A DNA stretch of 64,000 nucleotides from Schmidtea polychroa (lineage: Eukaryota). Positions 1 through 33,051 of this stretch are shown here, in pieces (position 1 is the first letter of the stretch; each line of letters starts with the position of its first letter). The DNA lies in assembly GCA_044892525.1 (NCBI GenBank), contig CM097885.1, positions 32,116,001 to 32,180,000 of the forward strand. The letters run 5' to 3'. The position numbers were made by a program, and so were the translations under genes. The notes beneath the pieces are model-generated. The model was not told the origin of the DNA. It saw only the letters and a program-made list of their open reading frames with translations, and did not search any database.

Positions 1-1080
1 TCGACCTTCCGGTTGACTGGTGGCGGTTTTTGGAATTGATTTACATCGTGCCACGTTTACGTATATTGGCCTGGTGAATGGATTATTTACCAATTTCACT
101 CTTACATTGGTTTCGCCTACGAATAAGATCTCATATGGTCCTTTTCCGTTGCGTTGTAACTTTTTTGTGGTTCCTGGAATTAATTCCGGGGTTTCTATCA
201 TTACCCAATCACCTGTTTGAAACGTATGTTGCTTCACGTTTTTCTTTCGATCGTGTAAATCTTTATAACTTTCCTGGTAGAACTTGATATTTAATCCCGC
301 AGTTTCCCAAATTTCTTGCATTCTTTCCTTGAATTTCGTAACATAATCATCGATCTCCATATACTGCGATATCGGTGGTTGGTATTCCAGGTCAATTGGC
401 ATATTACATTCTCTTCCGTACATTAATTTGAATGGGCTCATTTTCGTTGATGCGTGAATCGACATTCTGTACGCCATAAGACATAGGTTTATGTATTCGT
501 CCCAATCTCGTTGGTGACGGTCGACGTAGTTTGATAACATTTGTATAAGTGTTCCATTAAATCTTTCCGTCATCCCATTGGTTTGAGGATGATACGGTGA
601 TGTTCTCAATTTTGCGATTTTGAAATAGTTCGTTACTTCGCTCATTATCTCACTCATAAAATTAGTTCCCTGATCGGTTAATATCTGTTTTGGTGTTCCA
701 TATCGGCAACATATCTCTTCTACCAAAATTTTTGCGATTGTTTTAGCTTTTTGGTCTGGCATCGCGAATGCTTCTGGAAATTTCGTGAGAAAGTCGGTAA
801 TCACTAAAATGTAAATATTTCCTTTATCTGACTCTGGTAGTGGACCAACTACGTCCATGGATATCATCGTCATCGGCTCTATTGGTACCGGCATTGGCGT
901 CAAAGGTGCTTTCCATTTCGATCCAGTATTTTTCCTGGTCGCACAAGTTAGGCAATTTTTTACCCATTCGGTTACGTCTTCGGTTAACGTAGGCCAAAAA
1001 TATTTCTGTTTCATTCTTGCTAACGTCTTTTTCGATGACATATGTCCTCCCAATCTCCCATCGTGATATTGCGTTAACAA
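1..1080 (-). other. Integrase domain (HHCC, DDE core, GPY), truncated by window edge
   Basis: YHDGRLGGH...CLTC, ISMDVVGP, LTDQGTNF, SPYHPQTNGMTERFNGTL, GKGPYEI. Confidence 0.95.
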
Positions 1081-4000
1081 CTCTTTTCGTCGGTTTTCCG
1101 GTATACACATTAATCGTTTTTCCCCATCCATTATCAGCAACCAATCTTTCTCTATAATATATCGGTGTCGGTGTTTATCCATATGTTCTTTTAATTTTTG
1201 GTCTTTCGCATATACATCTGTCTTTCCGGTTTTTACATAATCGATAATTTGTTTTAATTCCGCGTCCTCTTGTTGGTCCTTTCGCAATTGACAGAAATCC
1301 AAATCTTCCGCTACTATTAAGCATATGCGTTGCATTTCTGAATCTACCAAATCTGGAAAAATAAATCTTGACATACAATCGGCGTTGGCATTTGCTCTTC
1401 CCGCTTTGAATTTTATAAATGGGGAGTATTCTTGCAATTGCATGGCCCATCTCATCAGTCTACTGGACGCTTCTTTATGTTGCCCTAACCACACTAATGG
1501 TTGATGATCTGTGGTTATACATATCTCATGTCCCCATAGTAAGTATCGGAAGTGTTTGATAGCTTGTATTATAGCCAATGCTTCTCGTTCTGTTACCGAA
1601 TAGTTCTTTTCGTGCTTTTTGAATGTTCGACTGTAATACCCGATTACTCTCTCTTTTCCTTCATCGTCTAATTGTCCCAGAATCGCGCCTGCCGCGTACC
1701 CGCTTGCATCCGTTGCCAATAGAAATGGCTTCTTAAAATCTGGGTGTACGAGGATAGGTGCTTCGATTAGTTTATCTCTCAGCGTTTCAAACGCCTCTTG
1801 TTGTTCCTTCCCCCAAATGAACGAAATGTCCTTCTTTACTAATTCCTGGATTGGTTTTGCAATTCCTGCATAATTTTTGATAAATTTGCGATAGTATCCG
1901 CATAATCCTAGAAATTCCTGAACTTGGGTGACAGTTTTCGGTGCTGGACATGTTTTTATTTTCTCAATGTTTCTTGGATCTGGCTCCTTTCCTTTAGCTG
2001 ACACTATGTGTCCCAAAAACGTGACTTTTTCCTTTGCCCAATCGCATTTTGATGGTTTGAGTTTGAGTTTCCACTGTCTTAATCTAATAAATACGTTTCG
2101 GATATCTTCCAGATGTTGTTCAAATGTCGCTGAATAGATTAGTAAATCATCAATATATACCATACATTGTTTGATTCCATGAGTGACAAAGTTCATACAT
2201 CGTTGAAATGATGCTGGTGCGTTGGTTAGTCCGAATGGCATTTTCCTGAATTGATATAGATCTCGTCCCAACGTGAAAGCTGTTTTCTCTTTGTCCTCAT
2301 CTTTGACTTTAATTTGCCAGTATCCACTTTTAAGATCTAAAGAAGTAAAATATGCTGCCCCTTGCAACATCAATAACATCTCATTGATGTCCGGCAATGG
2401 ATAGGTATCTCTCTTGGTTACTGCGTTTAACTTCCGATAATCGATACAGAATCGTTGGGTGCCATCTTTCTTTTTTACCATGACCACTGGGAATTGCCAG
2501 GGTGAGCAACTCGGTTCGATTACTTTTGCGTCCAGCATCTTTTGTACTTCTGCTTCGGCTATTTCTTTTTGCATTTCTGCTAGCTTGTATGGTCTTAATG
2601 CAATTGGAGTTTCATCTATGAGGGGTATTGCATGTAGGGTAACATCGCATGTACCCAAGTCTAAATCTGAGATGGCGAATATATCTTTATATTCTACCAA
2701 CAATCGGTGCAATTTTTTCTTTTCATCATTCGTCAACAACATACTATCTATTGTCCATAATTCATCATCTTTGATCATCTCGTTGGTCATTTTCGGTAAT
2801 TCTATGTCCATCATTGGGGTCAATCTTCCCAATTTTTCGTTCTCATAAATGATTTTGTCTTCCTCTTCGAAATTCGTGATGTTGAGCGGTATCACTCCTT
2901 CTTGGTTTATTGTGATTATTTCTCTTGCGAGTGGTAATTCTCGTCGCTTTTCAAATGACTTGCTTGGTTCAAAGATAACTTCTCCTTCCATACCCGTATC
3001 CACTTTTATCTGACAAATCATCTGCGATTTTGCTGGTACTATTATTTTTTCTGGACATCTGATGACTGCATTCATTTTGCATATTCTACCGGTTTTGTCT
3101 TTTAAACACATGGTTGTTAAGTCAATTACGACTTCTTTTAATAATTCTGGCATCAAATCCGTTCCGATTATGCATGGTACGCTAAGTTTTGTTATTACTG
3201 CCAAATACGTTTCAATTTCGTTGTCCTGGTATCTCAAAGTAGTCCACCATCTTCCGACCACGTCCACTGTTTCTTTACTACATGCTATGATGTGAATTGT
3301 TGTTGATTCGATATCTTTCCAGTGTTTACTGGGGATTTGATTAATCACTATCGCTGATACATTAGCTCCGGTGTCTATCATAGCATTGGTTTCTTTACCA
3401 TTGATTTGAATCATAACTGTTACTGCTGGACCTCCAGGTAGACTCATCGCTGCTATTGTTCTTACGTCATCTGCTTGATCTACACTTTTGGTACGTCGTG
3501 CTGGCATATAATGCATACCGGGTTGACTTGGTAATTGCGGATACATATTTTGTGTCATGGTCAAAGCTGCTTGTGGTCCCACGATATCCGGTGGTATGTA
3601 GCTTCCATTGGCGATCCAGGTATTTGTCTTTTCCTTTTCCCAATATGGTGCCGTTTCCATTGGTTTTTCGTTTGGGTTTCTGTTTGGATATAGACATTTG
3701 TCGTTCCCGTTATCATCGTCGTCACTATCGCTGTTAGATGATTGGCTTCTAAATCGGTCCAAGAATTTTGGCTTATTCTTTTTCAATTGTCGTCTTGTTA
3801 CTTCATCGTACATTACTTTCCGGAATCGTCTGCCTACTTCTTCGTCGGTTCCTTTAATCTTTGTTAATATTTTAATCAATCGCTTTATCCGATGAATGTC
3901 TTTTGAGTGACCATGTAATACCATGGTTTTTGCTAAAAATGGTAAAAAGCCTACTATCATTTTCCAATTTACTTTCTTTTCCCGCTTGTATATATCAAAA

Positions 4001-7000
4001 CAAGCTAACATTTGTGTTAATATTACCCTGACTATCTGAATTATGAGTATGATCCCTAATATCCCGGCCATCATTTGTCCAAAAACTAAGAATCTTCCCC
4101 ACATTGCTTTCATCATGTTTGACGTGGCTTGTTGAAAATGGTCTGGCGATAGTAGCAGTTCGTAATTCGGGCCTGATTGATAATTTGTTCCCCCCGTTAT
4201 TGTAACCATATTTGACAAAATGGATTCTCGTCTGGCTGGGAAGAGTACGTTAAGTCGTGCTGTTTCTAGATCTTCTGGGGAATACATACCACCGTTTGAC
4301 ACGTCTATAGGTTTGAAATCCAGCTCTGTGGCGAGTTCTATTAATCCAAATTTCTTGGGCTCCTCGGATATGGTTTTTCCCGGTAACATCATCCATTTCC
4401 CATCGGGCCTTTCATACAAAGGTCCGTATGCATTAGAACAGTTAAAGAGATTTGGGTAGAAACCCACTGGATTCATAATTCTAGTGACTGGTTGGACGAA
4501 TCGATTTTGTCCTTTATAACGGATTTCTAATTCATTTGCACATCTCTTTTCGGGTAGTATAGATTTTTCTGGCATTCGTGCATACGTCTTGGTACACTGG
4601 TATGTGTACATTACTTCTCCTACCATTCTACCAAAATGTCCATCCGGTAATGGGAGTGATGGCATCGTGTTATCTGGGTGCGTTATCGCAATAGCTAGCT
4701 TTGTTTTCAATATTTCTTTATTCAATGAACACTCGTTTTGTATCAGATCGTAATATACTTTTTGCAAGGTCGTTTGTCCGCGATGAAATAGAAAATCCAT
4801 TTTATTATTTGCATATAAGTATAGTTTTACGTCCTCCGTTGCTATCTTTCCCACTGCTCTATCGATTATTTGTCTCGACATATAGATGCCTGCGTAATTG
4901 GTTTTATATACTATACTGTCACATTTGGTGGTTTCTTTCTCTTTGATAAATCTCATACCTAGATCTGGATCGTCTGTGATTAATGCTGTTGGTGTCTTCT
5001 GCGTTGAAAGTCTCTTTTCTCTGGGAGATGGTGGCATTGGTTTTCCATTTCGCATTCTCACCCTGTCGTTTCCATCCTCGTCGTTCTCGTTCTCATATAT
5101 TTCTCCTTTTACTTCATTGAACAAGGCACTTTTTAACAGTTGGAGTCGGCATTTTTGGGTATTAGCTTCATAGATTATAGTTGATACTCCTGTCTTGCAT
5201 ACGTTTTCTGTAGCTCTACACGCTGGGTTGGTCTTCATTTGGTAATTATTTGCGTCAAATTGCGCTTCGTATTCTTTTAATTCAACCGTATAAGACTCGA
5301 TCACTACTACTCCCGATATTACCTCGCCTCGGATCGTATACGTACCTCCGTTACATGACCCATCTGATGATTTTACTTTTCCGGATACGTAAACACTTTC
5401 GGTTTTAATCATTCCAGTTTGTCCGTGAATCGTCACTCCGTTATGCATTTTTAACGCTCCGGTTCTAAATAGCTCTTTACAGTCCTCTCGTTGTATTGAT
5501 ACGATTTCTTTGTCCAGGCCGGGTAGTATAAGAGTCGAATACGAATATTGTCCACAGTAATATGCGAGTACCTTTTTTGATACCACGCATTCCCTTGCTT
5601 GCGTTCTGATGAAATCTGATTCTTGATATACATGGTAAGTAACTTTTGTTCTTACTATGTCTAATTTGTTGGGTGATGCTTGTCTGCATTCTTCTATGTC
5701 TCTCAACGAGTATTTATCTCTCATTATCATATTATCACAATCGTAGATGGTAAAACCTGTTGCTCCACTTGTGCACAACATCCATATCATCATAGTCATC
5801 ATTAACGAATTTATCGATGCTTTTCGGCTTGCTGGGTCTTTCATGGGTAGTTCCCATTCTAGTTCATTCAACAACTTCTTCAATCTAACTTGCATCGACC
5901 TTTCTTGCTCATTTTTTCGTGGCGCTTGTATAAGTCTTTTCCATCCTCCGGCACGAATAATATGTGGTTCAATAGTATTCTCTATGATTGAAACGGTCAT
6001 TTCCACATGATTTGCAAATTGTTTATTTGGTATTTTCCTCGCAGCTAGTCCCATCAAATTATACATCAAATACGTGATTACCACTAGATGATGTTCGTCA
6101 TCATTTGCATTTGTCGTGAGCAGTTCAATCACTCTCTTCGTTTCATCCCAATCCGTTTTGGTGGTTTTCGTTTTCTCTTTGATTAACTTTGGGATTATCC
6201 CCGAAACGATGTGCCATAATTGTCTAGCTTCCGTACTGGCTACTTTCCGTTGCCACAAACGTCTAAGTTGTGGGTTTGTTATTATTAACATATCTTTGAT
6301 CAATTCTCGTATCCATTTTTCTCCTCTTTCGATCGTTGGTTGGGCTTCCTTTAGATCCCATACTATTTTATCCAATTTTTCTAATCGAACTTGCCCTTGT
6401 TCTTGCTTTAATTGTTCTTTGGTTTTGAACTCAGACTTTTCTCCTTGTTTCTTAGGTCTTCCTTTTGCCCGTTTTTCCATCATCGTTCCGGCTTCTCTGG
6501 TATTTTCGTAATTCGGATTTCTTTCGTTATCCGTTCTGGGTAATGAGCTATCGTTATTTTTTAGCCACTCATTCCATTCATCTATTATTTTATCGGTTTG
6601 ACCTTCTGGTGTTACTTTCGTTGGTTCTCTTTGCTTCTGGAATTGTTCATCCGTTTCGGTTTCCGTAGTATTGTCGATGATTTCTTTGATGTTTAGTTTC
6701 GTTGGTTGTTGATAACTCGTTGATGGCTGGTTATTAGTCCACATTTCGGCTCCTGTCGGCCATCTTACTAATAGCGGTGATCTTTCTCCTGGTTCATCGT
6801 CACTATCTTCCAGGATTATCTCTTCAACTTCTTCAGTTTCATTAGATTTACTTGGTGCTTTGTTCGGACTTGGAGTACTCAAACTGCCTTTTGTTAGTTT
6901 AGTAATTTCACTTTTCCTTTTTAACGGCTTTCCCAACGTTTCTGCCATTGTTAACACATTTGTCTCTTCCAATCTCATGGGTGTTATTCCGACGTCTGCA

Positions 7001-7683
7001 TTATCGTCTAGTGATTTTCCGAATAGTTGCAGATGGAATGGAGTTTCATATGCTAATTTCTTTTTTAATTCTCTAATCTTTGTTGTTGGATGCACCTCTA
7101 GTTCCTCGATGCTCTTGTCCGGATACTTGATTCGGATGTGATACCTCTCCTGAGTGTCTTGTGCCCATTCCTGATTTCTCCATTTTCGAATAATTTGTTC
7201 TAGCTGTTCTGGATACCATTCATTATATTGCCGGTATTCCTCTATTGCCTTTGCCATTCCTCTCAGATTGTGGATGTTCTCTGATGTCTTTAAGATGATG
7301 TTAGCCAACGCTACTACTTGGCGTTTTTGATTTTTCGCTCCCATTGCTAAGATATCGCCTAATTGTTTATATCTTTCTTTCTCTTCTCGTTCTCTTGCTT
7401 CCGTCGCTTCCTCGCCGTCCATATCAGCATATTCCCGTTCCTTTTTCCTCATTGCATGAATGTGTCTCGCTTCATTTTCGCTTTCTGATGTGACATCCGT
7501 CTCGCCTTCGTCATCTGATGTCTGTTCCCTTGCTTCCTCTTCATATTCTGGAGGTTCCTCTTCTTCTTCCTCCGATTCACTTTCTGTCTCACCAATGTCT
7601 GTTTCTACGAAGATTCCTTTCCGGATTTCCCATTCCTTATTTTCTGCATTCCACACTCTTTCCCATTGGGTTCGTCTGCAGGA
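1..7683 (-). CDS. ORF2 polyprotein (>=2561 codons, no stop in window): UBL - Bcl-2-like - signal peptide - class III-type Env - TM - protease - RT - RNase H - integrase
   Basis: Manual translation finds no stop from 7683 to 1. It is in the same frame as ORF1, directly after TGA 7684-7686. First ATG at 7452. Absent from the ORF track, probably because it has no stop in the window. Confidence 0.93.
1360..1740 (-). other. RNase H domain
   Basis: PFLLATDASGYAAGAIL, NYSVTEREALAII, TTDHQPL, ANANADCMSR. Confidence 0.95.
1930..2640 (-). other. Reverse transcriptase domain (Ty3/Gypsy type)
   Basis: SPWQFPVVMVKKKDG, RFCIDYRKLN, LDLKSGYWQI, MPFGLTNAPASFQR, YIDD at 2146-2157. Confidence 0.97.
3070..3420 (-). 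other. Retropepsin aspartic protease domain
   Basis: AMIDTGAN (DTG at 3367-3375) and downstream CIIGTDL. Confidence 0.93.
3997..5817 (-). other. Envelope glycoprotein resembling chuvirus G (class III-type fusogen), with internal signal peptide and TM anchor
   Basis: Signal SINSLMMTMMIWMLCTSGATG|FTIYDC. Motifs YSLRDIEEC, ECVV..YYCG, DGSCNGG, LYLYANNK, ECSLNKEILKTKLA, GEVMYTYQC, FVQPVTRI, NGGMYSPEDL, VLFP occur in the order typical of chuvirus-like glycoproteins. About 14 Cys; TM about 3997-4100. Confidence 0.85.
5932..6321 (-). other. Divergent Bcl-2-fold-like domain
   Basis: BH4-like WIRELIKDML and BH2-like IIENTIEPHIIRAGGWKRL. HHLVV..GGW spans 51 aa, the same as GRIVA..GGW in human BCL2. 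NWGR of BH1 is absent. Confidence 0.55.
6940..7143 (-). other. Ubiquitin-like domain 3
   Basis: YHIRIKYPDKSIEELEVHPTTKIRELKKKL...LQLFGKSLDDNAD matches the ubiquitin pattern LEV.P...I..K.K...L..GK.L.D. No C-terminal GG. Confidence 0.7.
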
Positions 7684-10605
7684 TCAGGTGCTTAATTTCG
7701 TGATTTTTCTTTGTAGTTCTTTTTCTTTTAACCATTGTTGGTGGATTTCAATTATTTCTGTAGATTTTTGATATAACGTTTTCATCCGGTCTCGTATTTC
7801 TTTTTGATAGATTACATCTCTTGTTCGAAATTCATCCATTGGTACTATCCTGATGATCTGATGATTGTCCCACATACCCAATTCGCTTAACGAGGTGTCG
7901 TCTTCCGCTCGTAATATTATTTTATCGTACATCATGACTACATCATCCACCATACCATCACTACTTTCGCTACGTACCTTTTCCGTTATCTCTTGGTTTA
8001 TCTTTGATACCAAGTCATCCACTGTACTCCGATTGCTCATTTTTATTCGTCGTTTTTCTTCGTTCGGTAACCATATGGTTATTTCCAACCTCTGTGGCTG
8101 GGTTTCTTTTAACCTTCCATATTTGTGGATCAAATTTATGGTTCTCCAATCACTCATCCGGAGCATTTCTGTATCTCGCAATCGGCTCATTAGTTCGTAC
8201 ATGGCTGGGGCTCGTCTGGTGATGAGTAAATCCCAGTTGTCTTCTACTTGTTCTTGAATTTGTTTGATCAGCTTATCCAGGTTTCGTCTCAGAGTACATT
8301 GTTTTATTTGTTCTAATTTCAATTTGATATTAAAATCATATTCTGCCTTGGCATCTTTAGCCCAATCGTAAAGGTTGGCTGGTTGTTTTTCTTTATGCAA
8401 CTTCAGTATTTGCGTTTCTCCTGGCCATATTAGTGCATCTACTAAGTGCATATCTGGTTTGATCTGTTCTCCTTGGTATTGATACAGATATTCTTTCTTT
8501 CTCGAACTTCCCAAATGTTCTCGTATCCAATCGAAAAGTTCGTCGGTGACTGTACTTTTGATCCACATTCTTTCAAGTCCTCTGCTCGTTCCGATTTTTA
8601 TTACATACCGCGTGGTATCGGCCTGCTTCATTTTTTCCATATACTTTTTTATAATTGATTTTTCCTCGTTTGGTATTAAATCTTTCTCGTTTCTTTCCAA
8701 TTTCATCACTTTTTGCACGAATCGCCTGAATGGTATTACGTCGATGAACTCTTGGTTTCTCACTACCACCGGGAGTATTTCGGCTACCTGTTTTATCGCT
8801 TCCTCCCTTGCTTTTCTCAACTTTATTTCGATATCCTCGTCTTCACTTCCACTTGTTATCTCGCTTTCGCTTTCTTCCTCTTTGATTTCCCCTTTTGGAG
8901 GTTCGCTTATTTCATTTAGCTGTAGTATTTCTCCACCCAAACTACTTACATAGTCTTTTTCTTCGTCTGACGATGCTACATCTTTTGTCCTTTTCATCAT
9001 ATTGATTTGCAAATTTCTCATCCTTGGTACTCTCTTTAGTTTCTTTCTTTCGAATATCGTTGTTTCTTCTGATTCTAATTCTTGTAGCATTTGGTGGTTT
9101 AGTTGACTGGTTTGTTCCTTGCTCTTGTTATTTTCATCTTCTGTCTCAGCTTTCGCTTTATTATGTTCTTTTTCGATTTTATCTTTTATCTTTTTCCAGA
9201 ATATTTTCTGAATTCTCTGGTTTCCTTTTAAAATCGTGGTTGAATTCTCTGTTTTCATTTCCGTTGTTGTTTCTGTTACCTTTTCTGGTTCAGTCATGGG
9301 TACTACCCTTGGGTTTTTCCCGTAATTGTAACAATACTGGCTTTTCATGTCTTTTACTAACTTCATCATATTAATTCGCAATGGTTGTTCTTGTCGTTGT
9401 TGGTTGCGTTCTTGTTTTATCTTCTCTTCCTCGGCCTGTAGTCTTTGCCATTCTTGTACATGTTGATGCACTTCATAATTGTTGAGATTTTCGGTACTCC
9501 TCATCATACGTATATTCTGGGTTTGTTGTGGTGCTGATTCCGGTCTCGGTCTCATCATTTGTTGCATCATCTGTTTCATCTGCGAGATTTCCTGCATAAC
9601 GTTCATTTGTTTTCCTTCGCTAGGGTTACTTTGTCGTTGCGGATTCGCCATATAATTATTATTTCGCTGTGGTGGTCGTTGTTGTTGGCCCCTTTCTCGG
9701 CAATCTCTGGAGATGTGACCTGGCTGACCACAGTTAAAACAACCTCTCAATTGGCATACATTTTCGGTATGTCCACGCCGTCCGCAACGATTACAATTTG
9801 AATTTCTATAGCAATCTCTGTCCCAGTGTCCTGGTTTACCGCATGTTCGACACTGCTTGTTATTGTTCATATTTCGTCGATTATTAAAATTGTTCTCATT
9901 ATTTGGGTTGCTACGATTACCATTATTCCCATTTGATCGTCCTTGTGGTGGTTTGAAAATTTGGTGCGCTCCTGGTATAAATTGATTCATTTTCGGTTCT
10001 TGATTGTTGTTATCTCCGTTATCCGCTTTCGCTATTGCTGTCGCTATCCTCCCATCCTCTTGCATAATATTCATTTGTGCTGGAAGGTGGAGCTCGCATC
10101 TTGTAGCCCAATCTATGGCTTCCTCTAATGTTTTGCACATTTGACAACCTACTGAGGCTCTTACTTCTTCTCGGCGTAATCCCTCTATGAAATAACCGAT
10201 CAGATTTTCTTCGGGTAATTTTCCATTCATTGCTTTCTTCGCTATTCTCCGCAATTCACTGGCATATAATGTTATCGATTCGTTTGCTCTTTGTTTCCTA
10301 TTTGCTAGTTCGCCCAACGCCTGGTTGATTGGCTTACTGGCTCCGAAGGTTTTCTTCAGGAATGTTTTGATATCTTCCCACTTTTCTAATTTCGTATCTC
10401 TCTCTTTAGCTTCTAAATATACTTCTAATGCGCTATCGCACAAAAACAACGGCATCCTTTTACTAATTGCTTCGGGTGTCCATCCACACACAGTGATATA
10501 AACTTCAAAATTAGTTATGAACGTTGCTAGCTTGTTTGCATTTCCATTGAACGGTTCTCCTCGGAACTTTTCTTTATACTCGTCGGTTTTTACGACATTC
10601 GTCAT
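7684..10605 (-). CDS. ORF1: Gag (capsid plus three CCHC knuckles) extended by acidic/charged linkers and two ubiquitin-like domains
   Basis: 973-aa ORF with retrotransposon-gag-like N-terminus. CX2CX4HX4C knuckles at 9811-9852, 9754-9795 and 9700-9741. Frame stays open without ATG up to 10950. Confidence 0.92.
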   Translation of the reverse strand: MTNVVKTDEYKEKFRGEPFNGNANKLATFITNFEVYITVCGWTPEAISKRMPLFLCDSALEVYLEAKERDTKLEKWEDIKTFLKKTFGASKPINQALGELANRKQRANESITLYASELRRIAKKAMNGKLPEENLIGYFIEGLRREEVRASVGCQMCKTLEEAIDWATRCELHLPAQMNIMQEDGRIATAIAKADNGDNNNQEPKMNQFIPGAHQIFKPPQGRSNGNNGNRSNPNNENNFNNRRNMNNNKQCRTCGKPGHWDRDCYRNSNCNRCGRRGHTENVCQLRGCFNCGQPGHISRDCRERGQQQRPPQRNNNYMANPQRQSNPSEGKQMNVMQEISQMKQMMQQMMRPRPESAPQQTQNIRMMRSTENLNNYEVHQHVQEWQRLQAEEEKIKQERNQQRQEQPLRINMMKLVKDMKSQYCYNYGKNPRVVPMTEPEKVTETTTEMKTENSTTILKGNQRIQKIFWKKIKDKIEKEHNKAKAETEDENNKSKEQTSQLNHQMLQELESEETTIFERKKLKRVPRMRNLQINMMKRTKDVASSDEEKDYVSSLGGEILQLNEISEPPKGEIKEEESESEITSGSEDEDIEIKLRKAREEAIKQVAEILPVVVRNQEFIDVIPFRRFVQKVMKLERNEKDLIPNEEKSIIKKYMEKMKQADTTRYVIKIGTSRGLERMWIKSTVTDELFDWIREHLGSSRKKEYLYQYQGEQIKPDMHLVDALIWPGETQILKLHKEKQPANLYDWAKDAKAEYDFNIKLKLEQIKQCTLRRNLDKLIKQIQEQVEDNWDLLITRRAPAMYELMSRLRDTEMLRMSDWRTINLIHKYGRLKETQPQRLEITIWLPNEEKRRIKMSNRSTVDDLVSKINQEITEKVRSESSDGMVDDVVMMYDKIILRAEDDTSLSELGMWDNHQIIRIVPMDEFRTRDVIYQKEIRDRMKTLYQKSTEIIEIHQQWLKEKELQRKITKLST
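7837..8091 (-). other. Ubiquitin-like domain 2
   Basis: LEITIWLPNEEKRRIKMSNRSTVDDLVSKINQEI...VVMMYDKIILRAEDDTSLSELGMWDNHQIIRIV; beta-grasp UBL pattern (TV..L...I, L.D...LS.LG). Confidence 0.72.
8392..8613 (-). other. Ubiquitin/SUMO-like domain 1
   Basis: RYVIKIGTSRGLERMWIKSTVTDELFDWIREHLG...YLYQYQGEQIKPDMHLVDALIWPGETQILKL; SUMO-like F/Y.Y.G.QI pattern. Confidence 0.55.
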
Positions 10606-11976
10606 GATTGGTGTTCTAGATTCGTCGGTTTCTTTTAAATTATCCGGTGACGTGACTAAATTTTGGGCTGATAATTCCTCGGTTGACGTTGCTAAACTAT
10701 TAGTGATGTCGGACAGACTTTCTCTGCTTCGAGATCGACTAGGGGTGTATCCGAGATTTTCTTGGTCAAATATAGGTACTTGATTGGTTCTTCTTGATCC
10801 TTGTGATATTCCTCTTTGATGTTTAATAGATCGTCCTCTTTTGAGTTGTTGTAATTCGTCTCCTGAAAATAATACGTCTCCTGGCTTACTTGAAGATCTA
10901 AGGTTGGGTTTATCCGTGATTCCTTTCTTACGCTTCTTGGTAATTAGCGGCTACTGAATTGGACGAGTTCGGTTCTGATTGTGTTTCCTTCTATAAGTAT
11001 TCTGTATGAATCTGCTACTGTGATTCTGAGGAGATTTACTAGTCCTTGACAGATGGCTGCTAATACTATGAGGTTGAATATATCGATGATTCGTTCGAAG
11101 TTGGAGATGTCGCTATCTGTATCTTCTTCCGTTCTGGAGTCTTCCGGTTGCTGTGTCTCTCGGTGCGGGTTCTGAATGGATTTATTCTTGGTCGATTGTC
11201 GATTTCTTCGAATTCCTTTTGTGCGGGTTCTGGATTGTCTTGGTTGACTGGATTGGTTTGATATCTAAAATGAAAAAATGATCTCGTGTTGCATCTGCTT
11301 ACACGACTTCATCATTCTTTCAACAACATTCGAACACAGACACCTTTTAGGTTCTGTTTATGCTTCCCCTATTTTTTATGCAATTACTTCCGCGGGTTAT
11401 AATCTCCCATCAGCCCGAAATTTTCGTCGATTTTAAATTATCTATATGGGGTAGTAACAATTATCTATAGAGTCGTAATAATTATCTATTTTTATCACTT
11501 ATAATAGGAATAGGTCGTTGTCGGTCACTGCTTATTACCCCCCTTTCGTTTTCCTAGTCCTTTTTGCGCGGTTGTCGCTGTTTTACTTTTCGTATTTGCT
11601 ATTATCTCACTCGGTTCTACTCTGGAACCAATAAAATATATTCTCCCGCTTCGCCCAAAAAAGAAAAATATTATTCCGTAGAGTTTCTCCACTTCACTGG
11701 GGTCCCTTTAATTAGTTGGTTACTTTCCTCTTTACTCATTATCATCGTTTCGCCTATTCTTTATTTTCCATTATCTCTTTAGTTCGTTTCCTTCTTCCCT
11801 TTCCTTTTTCCTTATAATCTTATTATCTTTTCCACGAGCTCGTTTATTTCCTCTCTAAACTCAAATTTTCGTAATTACCTTCTATTTGTTCTGGCTAGCT
11901 TTACTATTCCATTTCACTAGTAATTTAAATATTATCTCATTGTAGCTTAACTGCTATCTCTCGTTTTTCTAGGCCT

Positions 11977-12352
11977 TTACGACTGGCTGGCACTATTCAA
12001 CAGCTCAATCTTCTTCCTTCTGATCGGTTGGACTATTCAACAACTCGATCTTACGACTGGCTGGCACTATTCAACAGCTCAATCTTCCTCCTTCTGATCG
12101 GTTGGACTATTCAACAACTCGATCTTACGACCGGCTGGCACTATTCAACAGCTCAATCTTCCTCCTTCTGATCGGTTGGACTATTCAACAACTCGATCTT
12201 ACGACTGGCTGGCACTATTCAACAGCTCAATCTTCCTCCTTCTGATCGGTTGGACTATTCAACAACTCGATCTTAATATCTCCGAACTGGCTGGACTTTT
12301 CACAGCTCAGTTTTCGTTTCCCTTGACCGGCTGGACTATTTTACAGCTCGGC
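11977..12352. repeat. Tandem array: 4 x 74 bp (each two related ~37-bp halves) plus 2 degenerate halves
   Basis: Units start at 11977, 12051, 12125 and 12199. Shared core GGYTGG(C)ACTATTCAACARCTC. Confidence 0.95.
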
Positions 12353-12911: not shown

Positions 12912-13394
12912 TCATTCACCATAGTAGACCATATGAGTTTCTTTTATCTCGTGCTTACATATCGTGCATCTTGTTAGCTCGTTCCCGCATTCTTCGCAGT
13001 GACTGAGGTGTCCACACGGCAAAAACAGTACGCGAATAGGACGAAGTTTACAAGCAAGGCAAGTTCGTAGTAGAGTCAGTTTTTCTTGTATTTTCCGCTC
13101 GATTGTATCTGATATGGTATTTAAGGGATCTTTTATACGTTGATAATCAAGATTTAATGCTGGGTGGTTCAATCTCTCTTGATACCATTGGTACACGGTT
13201 TCCGGGTTTACCTTCCCATCTGGGTGACTTAGTCCTGTGGCTAATAACATGTGGTTGGGGACGGCTGGTGTTTGCCCGATTGCTTGTAGTATGATGTTAA
13301 TTCTTTCTCTCTTTTGTGTCAGCGTTTTAAGGGAGTCATTCTCGATGTTTATGAAGTTGATTAGTTGTTGTATCTGATCTATGAATTCCGTCAT
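12912..13394 (-). CDS. IAP-type RING (C3HC4) E3 ligase without BIR domains, possible UBA-like segment
   Basis: RTCLACKLRPIRVLFLPCGHLSHCEECGNELTRCTIC has C-x2-C-x11-C-x-H-x3-C-x2-C-x6-C-x2-C spacing as in XIAP/cIAP. LLATG resembles ILATG of the cIAP UBA. Splice acceptor lies 2 nt before the ATG; AATAAA about 120 nt after the stop. Confidence 0.85.
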   Translation of the reverse strand: MTEFIDQIQQLINFINIENDSLKTLTQKRERINIILQAIGQTPAVPNHMLLATGLSHPDGKVNPETVYQWYQERLNHPALNLDYQRIKDPLNTISDTIERKIQEKLTLLRTCLACKLRPIRVLFLPCGHLSHCEECGNELTRCTICKHEIKETHMVYYGE

Positions 13395-13692: not shown

Positions 13693-13710
13693 ATCCCGGC
13701 TGAGCCCCCA
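13693..13710 (-). promoter_or_regulatory. Primer-binding site, tRNA-Pro type
   Basis: TGGGGGCTCAGCCGGGAT, 7 nt after the LTR end (..GCAACA). Differs at 2 nt from the classic tRNA-Pro PBS TGGGGGCTCGTCCGGGAT. Confidence 0.85.
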
Positions 13711-14282
13711 AAAATTATGTTGCGGGTACACTACTCGGATGACCCCTTTCTAGTGCAACTTTAGTCTAGAGGATGAATGCCACCTCGATTTCGCCCATCA
13801 TTTATTTGGTCATCACCGAGCGGGACCCGTACATAACTTACACTCCAACATAGCACCCGTGAATTGCTTCACGTTGGAACTGTGCTATGCCGGCGAGACG
13901 CCAGTAAGCAGGTGAGCCAGCTCCTCCGGACTACTCCTTACTGAGGCCTCGACTTCCCAACCCTGACTGCCGATAGAAGGACTTACGTCTACTCATTCCG
14001 TCGCCCCATCGCAATGTTTCTAGCTGAGTTTGCCAACTGACTAATGCTCCTCCAAGTTTTATGACTCTCAATACCATTCACCAATTTCAACTCAACTGTC
14101 CTAAGATGAACACAAAAGGAAACGTATGCAGACAAAATGGTTTATTATTAAGATTATCACACAAATATACCTAACACCTATACAATAAAATTTACGACCA
14201 CCGGAAAAGAAACAAAGGTAAAAATGTTATCCGACAATGTTCGGGTCATTTCAGTGAACGAAGACTTGTTACGGAGAAGTTC

Positions 14283-15032
14283 TCATTTCTCCCACTCTGA
14301 GTCTGCCAACAGATCTTCCAAATCGAAAAATTCAGAGGCATTTTCCTCCCAGGAAACACCAGCGGCGGAGATGATTCGCCCTGAGATCACTGATGCTAAA
14401 TCGATTGCTGCAGGAGGGTTGATGACTTTGATTAGATGATCCGACGATTGCTGGTTCTGTTTGGCGGTTACGCGTTCCCGCTGTTTCTTTTTGCGTTCGG
14501 CTCTCGATAATTGCCGACGCTTTGGCTTCGATGCCGTTGGATTGGTCGGGGGTGTTGCAGAGGTAGATGCCATCACAGGTAACGCTTTACTGGTTCCGGT
14601 AAAGATGACTTCTGGTTCTTTAGGTGAGAGCTCGGTCTCTACGCACCCATGGCAGGACTTTCCGACTGGAGAAGAAGATCCGCCAGAGATATCATGATGT
14701 GCTGGGAAAAGATTACTGGCTTCATTAATTGGGATCTTCGCGATCCTCCTTGTGGTTGCTGCCTGAACGTATAATTTGTGCAGCGCCTCCGACTGCTCTT
14801 TTATCAGGCTCCTCTGCGCCCGACTCTCGGAAATCAACGCGTCTCTACAGTGCTCGCTTCGATGCAGCTTCTTCTGAGCCTCCTTCATCTGGGTGGGACT
14901 AAACCATGTCCCCTCCAACTCATCTATCCTTCTCTTATGCTTTCCGATTTGGGCCTGGAGCTCTTTGATAATTGAATTCTTGTCGGAGCAAGGAAAACAA
15001 GGTCGAAGAACGGTCTTGGAATTTGGCAACAT
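14283..15032 (-). CDS. LTR-encoded accessory protein ORF-A (249 aa): CxxC + coiled coil, second CxxC, basic patch, acidic aromatic tail
   Basis: The probable start is MLPNSK (ATG 15032), 10 nt after a strong acceptor (AG 15043-15044), not the track start at 15107. The N-terminus is conserved in the copy at 32462 (17/21 aa identical). Confidence 0.75.
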   Translation of the reverse strand: MLPNSKTVLRPCFPCSDKNSIIKELQAQIGKHKRRIDELEGTWFSPTQMKEAQKKLHRSEHCRDALISESRAQRSLIKEQSEALHKLYVQAATTRRIAKIPINEASNLFPAHHDISGGSSSPVGKSCHGCVETELSPKEPEVIFTGTSKALPVMASTSATPPTNPTASKPKRRQLSRAERKKKQRERVTAKQNQQSSDHLIKVINPPAAIDLASVISGRIISAAGVSWEENASEFFDLEDLLADSEWEK

Positions 15033-17424
15033 TTTTGAGTGACTGTGGAAAAAAAAATGAAAAATGAAAATAATTAACTCAACTGGAGTGTCACCATCTG
15101 ACCCCATTCATACTTTACAGATCATAGACAAAAATATGAGTTTACCAGTCAAGACAAGTACTACTGCACGATGGATTCTCATACCTTTTGGGTCTTTGAT
15201 TATAAGAAGATAAATCGATCAAACCCGATTCCGTACACGGAAAGGAAGGTAATACTATTAGTGAGAGAGATTCTAGATCGATGAAAAAGGATTATTTAGT
15301 TAATCCGCTTGAAGTCATTATTTCACGTTTACCGAGCATCGAGTTACATTGTTGATTTCTCCCCCCGTACGAGTGATTTTGATGAGTGTATCATATACTG
15401 GGGTCGAGTGACTATCTATGGAAAAGGGGTCCATAATGTCTGTTGATTAGTTCCTACAGGATAAACGGAATGCTATTTAAATTTTTAATTATTTATTCAT
15501 TCTCTCTAATTACTCACATATGTGTTTTGCCTGGTTTAAATATTATTTATTAATAATATTCGACATTAATATTAATGATAATTATGTCAAAAATGACATA
15601 ATTTCCGTGCCATTCATTCTACGATAATAAAGAGAGAATAATCATAATTACGATCGGGTTTAGCACTAAAAAATATTATCTTTATGATAACTGAGCACGG
15701 TATCAATGTGAGCTAGTAGCCGACCATTCCTACTAGGTAGATAAGGAAATGTCAGCCCGGTGGTTGACTATTAATCCAGAGCGGTGAAATATGATACCTG
15801 TCGGTAGTCTAATTGGTTAACAGAAATTCCATCTGGTATGTTCGTCGGATTTTTCCTGAGTAGAGGCGTGTGTGACTTTGCCCACTGTACTTGGCCACTA
15901 GGTGAGTCTGTACCTGGTGACGCATGCAGGGTGTGCTTTCACACACTTAATTATACTACAATTGTAGGTGTTAAATGTTTGCAAGATGTCATTTTCTCAG
16001 AATTTTATCTATCGCGTAATCACTCACAATTCTCCTGCATATGGCGCTGATTTACTAATTCTCACCGGATTATTGGAAAAATTATAATTATCTGTATTGC
16101 AAATGTTGGATATAGCTTGCTCCACGGGTGGATTTTTTCGTCTTTAATTCCTCAAACCTAGTTTATCGATCTACTCTCTAAGTGCTGGAGGATTTCTACC
16201 TATCCCTGCTGGATTGCCAACCCCACGAAATACTGGAATTTTATATTTAATTAACAAGATCATCGGCTAACTTGAAGAAATATATTTTTCGTGGCTCGCA
16301 TTGGTTGCATTTTTCAATTCTAAATTATTTGATGCCAATAGTTTATGTGGTTATGATAATTAATTGTATGTAACTCCTTTTATATAAAATTCAAAAAAAA
16401 TTATGATAGCGAATCATTTTATGTAATTTGAACTTTTATTTGGAACAAACTCGTTTTATGCAATTCTGAATAACTATTTGGATTAAATCATTTTACCTGG
16501 TTCTTCCCTTTATTTACAAGCAGTCATTTCGAGTAAACCTAATACTTGTATGAAGCAATCTACTTTGAACTCCCTGGCAACTATGTCTTTAAGAGAACTT
16601 TTAGATGAACGGAATAACAGTTCCGCAGGTCATAGGCTAAAAATTGGTCGGAACAGATTCTGAGTGAAAAGTATGAACATCGAAGATATGTCACAGATAG
16701 CCTCACTAAGGTTTGAACAATTTTTGACACACAACTTACATTGATGATAGAGAAAATTTAGGCTTAGAAAAACCGATATTCGAAGACGATATTGTGACAC
16801 TCTCAATCACTACGCGAATACATCAAAATTTTCCGATTCCTTTATTACATATCTTTGTTTTCAATCACTACATGACTATCAATTTCGGCCCCCATTTACC
16901 TATAGATTTTAGTCGCACCTTCAGCGATTGGACCCGTGAAGAAGCCCTCACATTTCGGCCCAATCTAGCTGCGTGATTGAAATACCCTATGTCCACCGGT
17001 GGAGCTCCCGAAGGCACCTCACACCATGACATAGAGTATCTCAACGCCACGTTTCTCGCCAAATTGAATGGTCTCCAATAATAATTCATAAAAATTAATT
17101 CATAAAAGATCGAACGAGCAAATCATTTATTATTAAGCAAATTATTAATTTAAATAAAGTATTCTAATATCAAACGAAAAGAAAAACCATTTTTTAAATT
17201 AAGAATATTATTGAACTATACGCATTACTTAAAAATCCAAACTAAGCAATCAAAAATCCTTACCGAATGATTGATACAAGTATGGGCTGAGTCGAAAAGG
17301 GTACTATGTCGAATCAGTTAATGCTCGAGTGTCGTCTAGTTCTGTAAAAATCTTTTGAATCTTGGAATTGTCCTCGTGAGTTATCGTGCGTTAGTTGCTG
17401 GAGTTCTGTTCCGTCGTAGAATAG

Positions 17425-17561
17425 ATTTACCTATTGAGGTGGTTTGATTAACAGTCACAGTTATTTAAATTTCACTTACCTATTGAGGTGGTTTGATTAA
17501 CAGTAATTGTTATGTTTTTAATGCCTGCTTATATATTAATTTTTTGTTTGCGCGGACCAAT
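17425..17561 (-). promoter_or_regulatory. LTR promoter: inverted CCAAT, TATA box and downstream splice donors
   Basis: ATTGG 17557-17561, TATATAA 17529-17535, GTAAGT at 17479 and duplicated GTAAAT at 17430. The solo copy has the same spacings (ATTGG 30955, TATTTAA 30981, GTAAG 31036). Confidence 0.7.
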
Positions 17562-18523
17562 TAGAATTGAGTACCGCTTTATTTTATTAATTTAATTTAT
17601 TTTCTTTGTTTTCGAGTTATTTCTTCTTACTTTCTTTATTAAAATTATGTTTTTATTTATTTTCCTTAATTTTCTTAGTATTTACTATATTTTACGTTGT
17701 TTTCTGTCATTCTATTGTCTTATTTTAATTTTTCTCATCTTTATATTTTTGTTTTAATTCTTATTTTCTAATTATTGTTTTTCTTATGTTTTATTCTATT
17801 TTATTTGTCAATTTATTTGTTTTTATTTTTTATTTTATTTTAGTTCAGTTTCCCTAATTCCCAACTACCCTTCGACTCAGCCCAACATATCTGTTACTTG
17901 TAATTGTTACATAATTAAATAAATTTTTGCAAAATCATATATTTTTTACAGAAAGTACCTATACCTTGATATAAGATAGGTTCCTCAAATATATAGAAAG
18001 TAGGAAAACATTTAACCACGATAATCAAAATTTTTATAATAAAAAATATTCAAAGTGGACAATGATTAAGAGTCTCATTTTAAATATCAGAAAAGAATTA
18101 AGGATGTTTCCGAATAAATTTTTTATGTTGACATTACCAATTATTCAATAAATATATACGATTTTAAGTTAATTTATGGTTTTTTTAGAATTTGTACCAA
18201 AAATTGGTAAAAATTTAGAAAACACATTTTTCACAAATAAATATCCAATCTTCATGATAATTAGATAATTATTAAATCTAAAGTATGAAAATGAGTTATT
18301 ATACGTCGTCATCCTTATTTAATTTCATTTTGACCCTTATTTAATGTCTTTTTTACCTTTATTTTTTGTACTTTGATTTTAACCCAGTGCTACAACAATC
18401 TTACTATTTCACACTTAGTCAGAAATTTTTTATCGTTCAAAAATGTTATATTTTTTATCCAATATTAAAACAAAAAATTACAAATTTACAAAATCTTTAT
18501 TCTAAACAGTAAAATGATCGCTG

Positions 18524-20216
18524 CTATAACGATTCCACGGGTTGCTGCAACACCAGGCTGGATATTTCATTGAGGAGCACCTACAAAGCAACACAACATA
18601 TAAATCACCAATAAATTCAAAGGAAAACCAACATCGATTTTATCAATCATTGAATCAGTTCGATCAATAGTTTTACTAAGAGATTCCTTAAACTGAAGAA
18701 TGTTTCCCTAATTAAATGATAGTAATGAGAATTGCATAATATTCCAAATCAGCGATTATTACTAGAGATTCGGCATAGATTTGATTGGCTGATTCATTAC
18801 TGTTGATGTTGTTATTGCTATTGGTTGAGAATTGGGAATTTCTTACATTGGTCAGTTTGTTCTTCTGCAATATTACATATTTTATGCCGATAATTTCACT
18901 ATTAATATACTTGATTCCTATTGGTCGAAATTTTTGAGTTGCGGTTGGTAAATGTCTGCATGGTACTCTACAATTATTTTCGGTTCGTAAAATTGTTTAA
19001 TAAGAGAATTGATTTCTTTGTTAAATGATTTGCTGGGTTAACTATATAGGAACACATTGGGAACTATATGGGAACACAGGGGGGGGGGGGGGGGGACAAA
19101 AGGATTATATAGGAACACAAGGAAATTATATGGGAACAAAAGAGGGACAATGTATGAACAATAGAACTATATAGGAACACGGGGGAACTACATGGGAACA
19201 CAGGGGGAACAAAAGGATTATATAGGAACACAGGGGGGACTACATGAGAACAAAAGAGGAACTATATTGGAACACAGTGGGAACACACAGGAACAAAAAG
19301 ACTATATAGGAACACAAGGAAATTATATGGGAACAAAAGAGGGACAATGTGGGAACAGAAGGACTATATAGGAACACAGGGGAACTACATTGGAACAATG
19401 GAAGACTATATAGGAAAAAGGAGGGACTATATAGGAAAAAGGAGGGACTATATAGGAAAAAGGAGGGACTATATAGGAAAAAGGAGGGACTATATAGGAA
19501 AAAGGAGGGACTATATAGGAAAAAGGAGGGACTATATGGGAACACAGTGGAAGTATAAAAAACTATATAATAACTACATGGGAACAAATGAGTGAACTAT
19601 TTGAATGAGCAATTGCTTCAATATATATATAAATTGATAATGTAACATGTCCATTTATGATAACCATTTTATAATAAAATTTTCATACCATTTCTGGTTT
19701 TTAAAAATGTTTAATATAATATAGTTAATGGGATATGATATTATTTAAAGAATGAAATTCAGTTGTAAAGTTGTAAATTACCACAACAGAAAATGGATTT
19801 GATGATAATTTATCATTTGGCTTTGCTTCCACTATAGTGACTCTGGAGTTGAACTGGATAACATCTGATTTGGCGAAATTTAAAGACTTTTTTGCATCTA
19901 GTTTAGGTAACTCGGTTGGAACTTTAAATGTATTCTGGGTTTTAGCATTTCGAATCGGAATTGGGGTCTCTGTAGTGCGGATCCTTTTAGCATTGATAAG
20001 TGGAGATGCAGTATTAAAGGAATTTTTGAAAGGAACTGACTGTTTTACTAAATTTATATTTCTTTTAAATTTATCTTTGTTAATATCTTTTATTTCAGAT
20101 TTTTTCTCGAATTTCGGATGAACAATTTCTGATAATTTGCCTTTATCACTGAAATTGGTTGATTTCACAGTACTTGCTGGCTTACTAAGTCTAGGTAATC
20201 TTGTGGAATTAAACAT
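18524..20216 (-). CDS. Four-exon host gene of unknown function (about 222 aa, K/S/N-rich, possible C-terminal coiled coil)
   Basis: Exons 19782-20216, 18763-18864, 18633-18707 and 18524-18580. All GT-AG, phase 0 and in frame, ending in TAG. Last two introns are 55 and 52 nt. Confidence 0.6.
19030..19560. repeat. Purine-rich minisatellite with 6 x 21-bp core (GACTATATAGGAAAAAGGAGG) and a poly-G run
   Basis: Core units about 19403-19528, degenerate GGAACAC-containing units on both sides, G run from about 19079 to 19095. Lies in the first intron of the orphan gene. Confidence 0.9.
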
Positions 20217-30602: not shown

Positions 30603-33051
30603 TGTTGGGCTGAGAAGTAAGATAAAAATGAAGCATGAAAAATGTAAATAAGTAAAAATTGAAAACAATAGAAAACAACGAAAATATACCTCAAAAAAAT
30701 CAAATTAAAATAAATATATAAAATAAGTATAGTAATTAAAATGAAATATAGGAAAAATAAAACATAGGATTAAAACAATAAATTAAAAGAATTAAAAATA
30801 CAAAATATCGATAAAAGAAGCAAAATAACATGCAGTTAATAGAAAGAATTTAAAAAATTAATATAAGTACAAGAAAAAGCAAAGAAAACTTAATAAAAGT
30901 AATAAATTATATAAATTAAATTAAATTAAAGAAATTAACGACGCCTCGATTTTGATTGGCCCGCTCATTTCACAATATGCTATTTAAGCACAGCATTGAA
31001 ATAAAAATTTCAATATTTAAATTTTACAAATTTAGGTAAGCTACATTAAGTAGAATAAGTTAATGTTTAAATTTTACAAATTTAAATTTAGAAATCAATT
31101 TACTTCTTCAAATACCCAAATTATACCAAGAGGGAAAGAGTTTAAGAATTACTCAGCAACTTCAAGTGACGAACAAATCACTCGGACTCAGAACGATTAA
31201 CTGATTTAGCGGACTAATTGAAACATCACTTAGAGATTCAGTAAATAATATTTATTATTTATATATGTTACCACGTAAGTGAATATGTAATTTATTATAA
31301 CCATTAAATGAATTTTATAAAATTGGTTCATTTTTCGTTTTTCATTATACATTAATATTAAGTAATTTTTGAAGGTTAAATAATTATCACAATTTTGTTA
31401 AAACCAAAATGGCAAATATTTTTATTTTAACGAAAACAAGTTTTGCAACGATAGATTATGCGCACAATTTTTATGCAGTTCGTATGATTTGTTCGTTTCT
31501 GAATGAGGAGAGATTGATGACATTTGGTATCCAAAAGGCCACGACTCAAGGGACATCAGTTGTTCCTTGGATTAGCAGGTCGGCTGGCATTTCAGTGGCA
31601 TCGCGGTTGAGCGGGTCGATATGTAGGGGTTTCTCTACTGATCTGTCGCCGTTGAGAATTTTCGATATGATAACAATCCATAATAATTTTGCGAACATAA
31701 AGTCAGAGATGTTGAAGTGAGCGCAATGATTGAGAGTGTCTACAGGATATACATTATCTTCTTTACCAAGCCATTCACTTTGATTTCACCTACTTCGGAC
31801 AAATGAAGTTTTCCTTCGTAAAAATCCGACAAGCAGCACGATTGTGAGAATCAGGACTCTAGATTGAATTAGGACGTAAATTGATTGAGATACGCTACAT
31901 CATAAAAAGGATCGTAATCCACACGCACGATATCCACACTTCTGTCATCATCGAGAGAGATAGTCCGTCGATCATATATAAAGGTACTCTAGGACGTATA
32001 TTATTATAAATCTTTTTAATGGGGTGAATCGGGTGGTGCACGAACATATTTTCGCATGTTAATCTCACGAGACAGTTTTCTCGGCACACACTTCAAGGGC
32101 AAGACCATCGGTCATGAAATTGTTAGCACATTGACACTCGATACGATGATAGTGAATACGAACAAGCATTCAATTCGAAAAATTAAACATAAAACGACAC
32201 CTAATTTTCTCCGAAATAATTTGACGACATTATCAACCACCGAACAAAATCGATAAAATCCACTATATTCACGTCCACCGATGTTCGATCATTAGATTCG
32301 ATGAGTACAGATCTCTGTGCATAACCGGTAATCAGGGTTAGTATGAGCTCATCAGATTTTCTATGAGTATCCCAGTGGAAAGCCAATCGCTCGGTCAAAC
32401 GTTCTAAATCAGTTTATTATCAATGTATTAATGCCGGTTCATCTTTTTTTCTTTGTAGAAAATGCACAATATTCCTTCTACGTCGGCGGTACTCAAGCCT
32501 TGTTTCTCCTGTGCCGACAAGAATTCGATAATTAAAACGCTTCAAGCTCAGTGTATCGCCTTATTAGACTTTTCTCCAACGCCTTGAGTATCCTAATTTG
32601 AGCATGTGGAGTAAATCCCGTCATTTTGATTTTCTTTTTCGTTCTGTTTATTTGGTAAAGTATAATATACGTGTAAATGTGTCCAGAGTTGTGTCATAAA
32701 TTTTCGTGATATGACCGAGTGATATAGGGCTGGTTTGAAAGTGGCGTGTTTATCCGAAAAACCGGACAAACCGATCAGGTTTTTTAACGAATGACGTAAG
32801 ACGTAAGTCCTTTCATCGGCAGTTAATAGAGGAGTGAGTCGAATTGTAGCAAAGGAGTAGTCCTAAGATAAGGGCTCGCCTGCTTCGCTGAATTCCGCCA
32901 TCATGACACAGGACCAACATTCTGTAGGGCGTGGGTGTCATGGTGTGAGAACGATCCGACTTGCGCCCAACAAGCGGAGTTGCGTAGAGTGACTGACCAT
33001 CATTCCCTAGTAGCCAAATGAATTGATGTTGACCTAGTCGACAACCCAACA
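30603..33051 (+). mobile_element. Diverged, internally deleted solo LTR of the giant Gypsy family (2449 bp)
   Basis: TGTTGGGCTGAG...CCCAACA with TAAT on both sides and no PBS after it. Shares promoter, donor, acceptor+ORF-A start and U5 blocks with 13718-17887. Confidence 0.8.
32462..32587 (+). pseudogene. Truncated ORF-A homolog
   Basis: MHNIPSTSAVLKPCFSCADKNSIIKTLQAQ versus MLPNSKTVLRPCFPCSDKNSIIKELQAQ. Homology ends at 32551. Acceptor AG at 32457-32458. Confidence 0.85.

Follow-up and report, generated by a model that had tools for sequence, protein, structure and literature searches.

ORF-A, an open reading frame of 249 codons plus stop, is a gene under purifying selection that lies wholly within an LTR of a giant gypsy retrotransposon in the window, i.e. 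the whole 64,000-nt stretch of Schmidtea polychroa DNA analysed here. As judged by sequence comparison, it represents a protein family that is new and unusually located; the host element itself is already known. The encoded protein is probably a nuclear regulator of the element. As the best reading, to which we give a little less than an even chance, ORF-A would be a Rev/CERV-like switch for unspliced RNA. The features discussed below have the following window positions.

1..10605, minus strand: gag with its three CCHC knuckles, followed by an env-like fusion protein, protease, RT, RNase H and integrase; continues beyond the window edge
12912..13394, minus strand: second accessory ORF of the same element, RING finger; YAG 2 nt ahead of the ATG
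13693..13710, minus strand: primer-binding site, assigned to the tRNA-Pro type because it resembles the Cer1 site given in PMC10309623
13718..17887, minus strand: 5' LTR, 4,170 bp, TG...CA; part of a 30,363-bp Burro-type gypsy element
14141..14146, minus strand: AATAAA poly(A) signal, ~139 nt past the ORF-A stop, followed by a U/GU-rich stretch; would end the predicted R of ~3.4 kb
14283..15032, minus strand: ORF-A, 249 aa plus stop, start at 15032 and end at 14283; CxxC at residues 11-15, helices at 18-93, a further CxxC at 127-130, an arginine-rich helix at 169-195 and an acidic-aromatic tail at 228-242
15043..17263, minus strand: predicted intron 2 of 2,221 nt; its donor GTAAGG is at 17263, and a pyrimidine tract is followed by a CAG acceptor that ends at 15043
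16922..17051, minus strand: RNA double hairpin with covariation, within intron 2; a candidate for a response element or a packaging signal
17264..17430, minus strand: predicted non-coding exon 2, ATG-free
17431..17479, minus strand: predicted intron 1 (49 nt, GTAAGT...AG), its last 25 nt repeating exon 1
17480..17504, minus strand: predicted exon 1 (25 nt), beginning 31 nt after the TATA box
17528..17561, minus strand: predicted core promoter, ATTGG (reverse CCAAT box) then TATATAAG; this arrangement occurs in 44-45 distinct LTR copies of near and distant lineages
17887-17505, minus strand: predicted U3
30603..33051, plus strand: solo LTR of a distant lineage, TSD TAAT; ORF-A remnant from 32462

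The partner 3' LTR of the element is located beyond the window, 26,193 bp further left, and is 99.6% identical to the 5' LTR (7 mismatches and a single gap of 9 bp). The 30,363-bp element is flanked by the 4-bp target duplication TATC. Between the LTRs the order is RING ORF, gag, viral fusion domain, protease, RT, RNase H, integrase, ankyrin and TRAF/MATH ORFs, and several unknowns. Five of nine element proteins had matches in a Pfam scan. Retrotrans_gag with CCHC knuckles and the PR-RT-RH-IN order were found, as were ankyrin, MATH and RING domains and a fusion domain (PF24664, E 1.8e-70, residues 894-1233) in frame ahead of RVP at 1423-1514; BIR, BCL2 and SUMO-like domains gave no match at E 0.001. 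By its match to the description given in PMC6431247, the element is classified as a Burro-type giant gypsy. For Burro1, one ORF of 4,873 aa is described in that paper (PMC6431247). The gag frame of the window copy closes at a stop (7684-7686) ahead of the env-pol frame, and the ankyrin ORF is in a different frame (L031:6762-9875). A 74-bp tandem repeat of ~5 copies (11903-12346) is located between the RING ORF and gag. Tandem elements sharing an LTR were also seen, as three evenly spaced LTRs (~26 kb or 20.5 kb) at G000 C4:46.24-46.29 Mb, C4:69.86-69.91 Mb and C158.

A preliminary description of this DNA had placed ORF-A wholly inside the LTR, and the coordinates confirm this (15032-14283 within 13718-17887). 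ORF-A is also present in the 3' LTR, where it is 100% identical. The protein motifs are located as claimed, with PCFPC at residues 11-15, CHGC at 127-130, the basic segment KPKRRQLSRAERKKKQRER at 169-187 and the end EFFDLEDLLADSEWEK at 234-249. Translation start at 15032 is preferable to the in-frame ATG at 15107, because 15032 comes just after a conserved acceptor and 15107 is within a predicted intron. The start at 15107 was rejected; open frames upstream differ between copies.

Copies of ORF-A are abundant in its own genome. A protein search yielded 7,165 candidates, and of 150 that were scored nearly all were full-length at 72-100%. Querying with a distant homologue recovered further lineages at 40-65% identity in the same genome, so that homologues reach down to ~40% identity. 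Outside its own genome no homologue was found among 596 and 7,261 candidates of near lengths only, and a single-protein query gave no match among 1.84 billion representatives; the best Atlas score was 0.85, which is a lead only. Pfam contains no family for the window protein, its relatives giving scattered weak coiled-coil matches, and the PDB sequence search returned E 0.29 or worse. Literature searches on Burro elements, LTR-internal ORFs, introns in R and Rev-like or additional retrotransposon ORFs gave no account of ORF-A; Repbase, Grohme et al. 2018 or supplements may annotate the ORF.

Selection on ORF-A was quantified by the Nei-Gojobori method with Jukes-Cantor correction for 66 of the 69 distinct intact sequences; two were left out because their ends are truncated, and one as a near-duplicate. 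The dN/dS was 0.18 within the young group, 0.13 against the 79% group and 0.08 against the 73-76% group, several synonymous distances being saturated. Lowest values were found in residues 6-112, 166-186 and 218-249. By part, the coiled coil reached 0.02-0.12, the basic helix 0.06-0.14 and the linkers 0.16-0.55; the tail was at 0.03-0.07, but at 0.22 within one group. The other two sense frames gave 1.36 and 1.80 with ~10 stops (10 copies of each of two groups), and the mirror antisense frame alone echoes the signal (0.20, with stops). The dN/dS is low in the ORF-A frame, and the gene is therefore under purifying selection (0.13-0.18 among copies). Together with its presence in both LTRs, this bears out the earlier claim of a real gene borne by the LTR. 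ORF-A might otherwise be a chance or decaying frame in a young repeat, young copies being open merely through their youth; that the searches gave no homologue in another genome and that the older lineage consists mostly of broken copies would agree with this. The dN/dS of 0.13 in the ORF-A frame only refutes it, and frames of 250 aa stay open at 40-47% identity, where synonymous sites are saturated. The acceptor is conserved and the leader ATG-free, and we regard a chance frame as having a practically negligible probability.

The preliminary description had further proposed that every solo LTR of the family disperses the gene. Copies were searched with the non-coding LTR end, which avoids selecting open frames. 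An intact ORF of 248-249 aa was present at 28 of the 30 loci found in this way, which are young copies and include many LTR pairs. In the older lineage, to which the solo LTR of the window belongs, only 2 of 23 places (counted by hand) had a full-length ORF. Compared to a same-lineage copy, the window solo LTR has lost ~707 bp of the ORF after codon 29, leaving a remnant of 41 aa. The word "every" thus fails already in the window. Conservation of the N-terminus in this solo LTR, which had also been noted, is correct as far as 27 residues match at 67%; the match is short because it is only what the deletion has left. Some solo LTRs do carry an intact ORF-A: 45 loci picked for an intact ORF comprised 10 solo LTRs with target duplications, five 5' LTRs, four 3' LTRs, one unclear case and 25 unclassed loci. 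An intronless ORF of 330 aa (33311-34303, minus strand), which resembles an F-box protein of the FBXO4 kind, is located 260 bp from the solo LTR of the window. Two further open frames on the minus strand, of 836 aa (21564-24074) and 421 aa (41964-43229), are presumably a hAT-like and a pogo/tigger-like transposase, respectively, and 21-bp and related purine-rich tandem repeats occur at 19037-19600.

Promoter, splice and poly(A) signals were predicted from the letters and compared between copies. An ATTGG...TATATAA promoter is found ~330-360 nt into the LTR in near and distant lineages. The conserved TATA is at LTR nt 353 and the predicted start at 384, while ORF-A occupies nt 2856-3605. A location of ORF-A in U3 was accordingly rejected, the ORF lying ~2.5 kb downstream of the predicted start site. 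The transcript is predicted to start at ~17504 and to run through exon 1, intron 1, exon 2, intron 2 and ORF-A to a poly(A) site at ~14120. ORF-A would then be in a predicted R region of ~3.4 kb, and a single LTR would be a complete gene because promoter, splice signals and poly(A) signal place ORF-A in R. If genomic RNA ended just after intron 1, ORF-A would be in U5; it would be downstream of the start either way.

The first donor is located ~55 nt past the TATA box. Donor and exon 1 repeat are present in 33 of 44 promoters, and the 49-nt unit is absent from 9 of 44. We did not take this loss to prove splicing, as the same product arises when direct repeats recombine. The exon 1 repeat begins at TATA+28 to +31 in 23 of the 33 copies and serves as an independent marker of the start site. 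The exon 1 and intron 1 copies of the repeat (17431-17504, minus strand) match within an element and differ between lineages, and the letters preceding the second copy vary among close relatives. This fits a transfer of strong-stop DNA, made on a spliced 5' end, to a 3' end that is still unspliced; intron 1 would in this way be renewed in each cycle. The leader up to the second donor contains 5 ATG in 6,766 nt compared to 85 expected from shuffles and 222 in the next equal stretch, the copies being related rather than independent. A stretch of predicted exon 2 (~17280-17300, minus strand) is complementary to the first LTR bases (17865-17887) in 22 of 31 copies with the second donor, possibly indicating end-to-end pairing of genomic RNA.

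A second donor, GTAAG[GT], was found 160-310 nt past the TATA box in 31 of 45 promoters compared to 10 of 135 control windows; it was seen in only 2 of 10 distant-lineage promoters. At the other end of intron 2, all 48 distinct copies have a YAG within 12 nt upstream of the ATG, and 46 of 48 have it with a pyrimidine tract (random sites: 1,010 of 12,000, 8.4%). An AATAAA at +100 to +150 of the stop occurs in 62 of 65 near copies and in 1 of 5 distant copies counted; by eye it is not conserved in the other distant copies. Contigs from runs presumed to be RNA cover ORF-A-like sequence, many at <90% likeness, and no joint across either predicted intron was present in them. Low cover of intron 2 counts neither way because intron 2 diverges faster. 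Exact patterns of the exon 2/ORF-A or exon 1/ORF-A junction had no match in the genome. A YAG 1-2 nt before the ATG is also found at the RING ORF (12912-13394), the full TRAF-like ORF and two coiled-coil-like ORFs (L031:4768-6201, 3519-4622 and 2926-3402, minus strand); the ankyrin, 128-aa and 189-aa ORFs have no YAG just before the ATG. This suggests that a single leader may be spliced onto several genes of the element.

Within intron 2, a block of ~150 nt is common to 40 of 60 loci, and adjacent bins drop to ~20-25. The block is ~80-92% conserved; the remaining intron does not align. Its double hairpin folds with z = -5.9, and compensatory changes are seen in 13 of 49 pairs with 97.5% of cells paired versus 39-46% in slid controls (25 sequences chosen for diversity from 32 distinct matches plus the window; relatedness inflates the shuffle test). 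A related block is present in 11 of the 18 distant-lineage loci tested. Rfam gave no match for the hairpin, apart from one chance hit. Genomic RNA would retain the hairpin and spliced ORF-A mRNA would be without it.

AlphaFold prediction with 12 sequences gave a mean pLDDT of 59. Helices are predicted with confidence at residues 18-39 and 46-93 and moderately at 177-195, the remainder being disordered. The two confident helices agree with the coiled coil named in the preliminary description. Foldseek matched generic helices only, none at E 0.001, the model being of low confidence overall. Of 87 distinct proteins, 86 keep the first C-x-x-C, 79 the basic motif and 82 the tail motif, W-EE-x-A-x-[DE]-FF-[DN]-L-[DE][DE]-[LI][LF]. 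Classical leucine-rich export-signal patterns occur in the tail of at most 3 of the 87 proteins. One reverse-class export pattern fits residues 210-220 in 59 of 87, such matches being common. The arginine-rich helix and the intronic RNA structure are both kept in near and distant lineages.

This combination in both lineages fits a Rev-like role at least as well as that of a transactivator. In the Rev/CERV-like reading, ORF-A mRNA would be fully spliced, starting and ending inside one LTR. The short spliced RNA would be the default early product because full-length RNA can arise only if intron 2 is retained and the first poly(A) site is passed. The protein may oligomerise via its N-terminal helices and enter the nucleus, where the helical arginine-rich motif would bind the hairpin, present on genomic RNA and absent from spliced ORF-A mRNA. 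The conserved tail might recruit a host export or processing factor, and RNA with introns would thereby accumulate or be exported from the nucleus. The protein would also be provided in trans by intact solo LTRs. Counter to this, the hairpin could equally well serve Gag as a signal for packaging or dimerisation. The scarcity of classical export-signal patterns in the tail, the poly(A) hexamer that the distant lineage does not conserve and the failure to find exact spliced junctions in the genome likewise count against this reading. An extended form of the Rev/CERV-like reading, which we put forward with reservation and consider rather doubtful, treats the 3.4-kb R as a complete regulatory circuit made up of promoter, self-renewing intron 1, RNA switch, reader protein and poly(A). 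Every intact solo LTR would in that case act as an independent Rev-like gene, and the many dispersed copies would decide in trans whether genomic RNA is made by full-length elements.

ORF-A could instead be a transcriptional activator of the LTR promoter, either of the Tat kind (RNA-tethered) or of the Tas/Tax kind (DNA- or factor-tethered). We hold this to be possible, on balance doubtful, and the same grade applies to the scheme in which the coiled coil would dimerise, the basic motif would target the nucleus or nucleic acid and the acidic-aromatic tail would recruit co-activators. An early spliced product would suit positive feedback. However, the basic segment lies ~75 residues past the helices and not ahead of them as in bZIP proteins, where it stands in front. 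The hairpin is situated ~450-580 nt past the start site, far from the position of TAR, and no recognisable DNA-binding fold was found (Pfam, Foldseek at E 0.001, PDB sequence), which is a weak test with a model of low overall confidence. The tail is the most constrained part of the protein in the young group (dN/dS 0.03). Its last 39 residues, with a net charge of -8 and 8 W/F/L, are inside the activation-domain rule given in PMC10550315 (charge -13 to -8, at least 6 W+F+L), and 61 of 69 near copies pass, which favours an activator. Only 1 of 18 distant copies does so, their best tail charge being mostly -3 to -6, and the precision stated in PMC10550315 is 0.2-0.7, for known transcription factors only. 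The transactivator-like character that the preliminary description had ascribed to ORF-A is therefore supported only in part, by the tail of most near copies and hardly by that of the distant lineage, in which the second CxxC is likewise kept in only 4 of 18 copies (69 of 69 near copies). The activator and the Rev-like reading are not mutually exclusive.

A further explanation is another accessory role, namely countering piRNA or chromatin silencing, host signalling with the RING, TRAF and ankyrin proteins, or a component of the particle, the hairpin being an unrelated packaging signal. The element carries several host-manipulating domains (see also PMC6431247), BURRO elements are reported as SMEDWI-2 targets in PMC8532177, and a short conserved tail could bind any host protein. 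Yet there is no sequence pointer to a specific activity of this sort, and the arginine-rich helix, the spliced position close to the promoter and the intronic structure can, taken together, be explained more simply. We consider such a role improbable.

It is a hallmark of complex retroviruses that they make regulatory proteins from spliced RNA, and among gypsy retrotransposons CERV is the one tested case found in our literature search. New here is a protein family inside the LTR together with a candidate RNA target. With such a gene inside, solo LTRs, usually seen as coding-dead promoters, would be scattered across the genome as protein-coding genes. Burro elements make up a large part of planarian genomes and are under piRNA control. 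Whether ORF-A acts in activation or in export matters for the question of how a 30-kb RNA that contains many splice sites stays whole, and is directly testable because RNAi works well in planarians.

The preliminary description had compared ORF-A to MMTV sag and HIV nef, with which it shares a coding frame within the LTR. These genes are in U3 and are read from the 3' LTR. The parallel does not extend to ORF-A, which is ~2.5 kb downstream of the predicted start; in contrast to the situation of sag and nef, one LTR with ORF-A would by itself contain the promoter, the introns, the gene and the poly(A) site. The element as a whole resembles Burro/GYPSM1 as described in PMC6431247 in its size (>30 kb), its many copies, the three CCHC knuckles of its Gag, a fusion protein of the mononegavirus type in frame ahead of the protease, and ankyrin, MATH/TRAF and RING accessory domains. 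It differs in that the text of PMC6431247 names neither an LTR-internal ORF nor a splicing scheme; figure 2A of that paper may draw an ORF box.

The gypsy precedent for the Rev/CERV-like reading is CERV of the C. elegans element Cer1, which is needed to export unspliced RNA (PMC10309623). Like the element described here, Cer1 belongs to the gypsy group, has a primer site of the tRNA-Pro type and carries three CCHC fingers, and CERV is described as a novel nuclear protein from a spliced mRNA with zipper, basic NLS and cysteine-rich part, to which ORF-A is similar by sequence features (PMC10309623). CERV differs in having 517 aa, gag-frame exons plus a post-pol ORF, globular domains and a location outside the LTR (PMC10309623); general searches gave no sequence or fold link between the two proteins. 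Rev-like proteins are characterized by a completely spliced mRNA, an arginine-rich domain for nuclear localization and RNA binding, and an oligomerisation domain (PMC10746203). ORF-A resembles Rev/Rex/Rec in its arginine-rich domain, its predicted fully spliced early mRNA and the structured RNA on intron-containing transcripts (PMC10746203). The oligomerisation domain has its possible counterpart in the long helices 18-93, which are predicted for the monomer. In contrast to Rev/Rex/Rec, ORF-A has no conserved classical export signal and no homology to them, and gene and candidate RNA element are both in the LTR. In foamy viruses, a donor inside the LTR governs 5' polyadenylation (PMC3694450), and a major splice donor inside the LTR upstream of the poly(A) signal is likewise predicted for the element described here.
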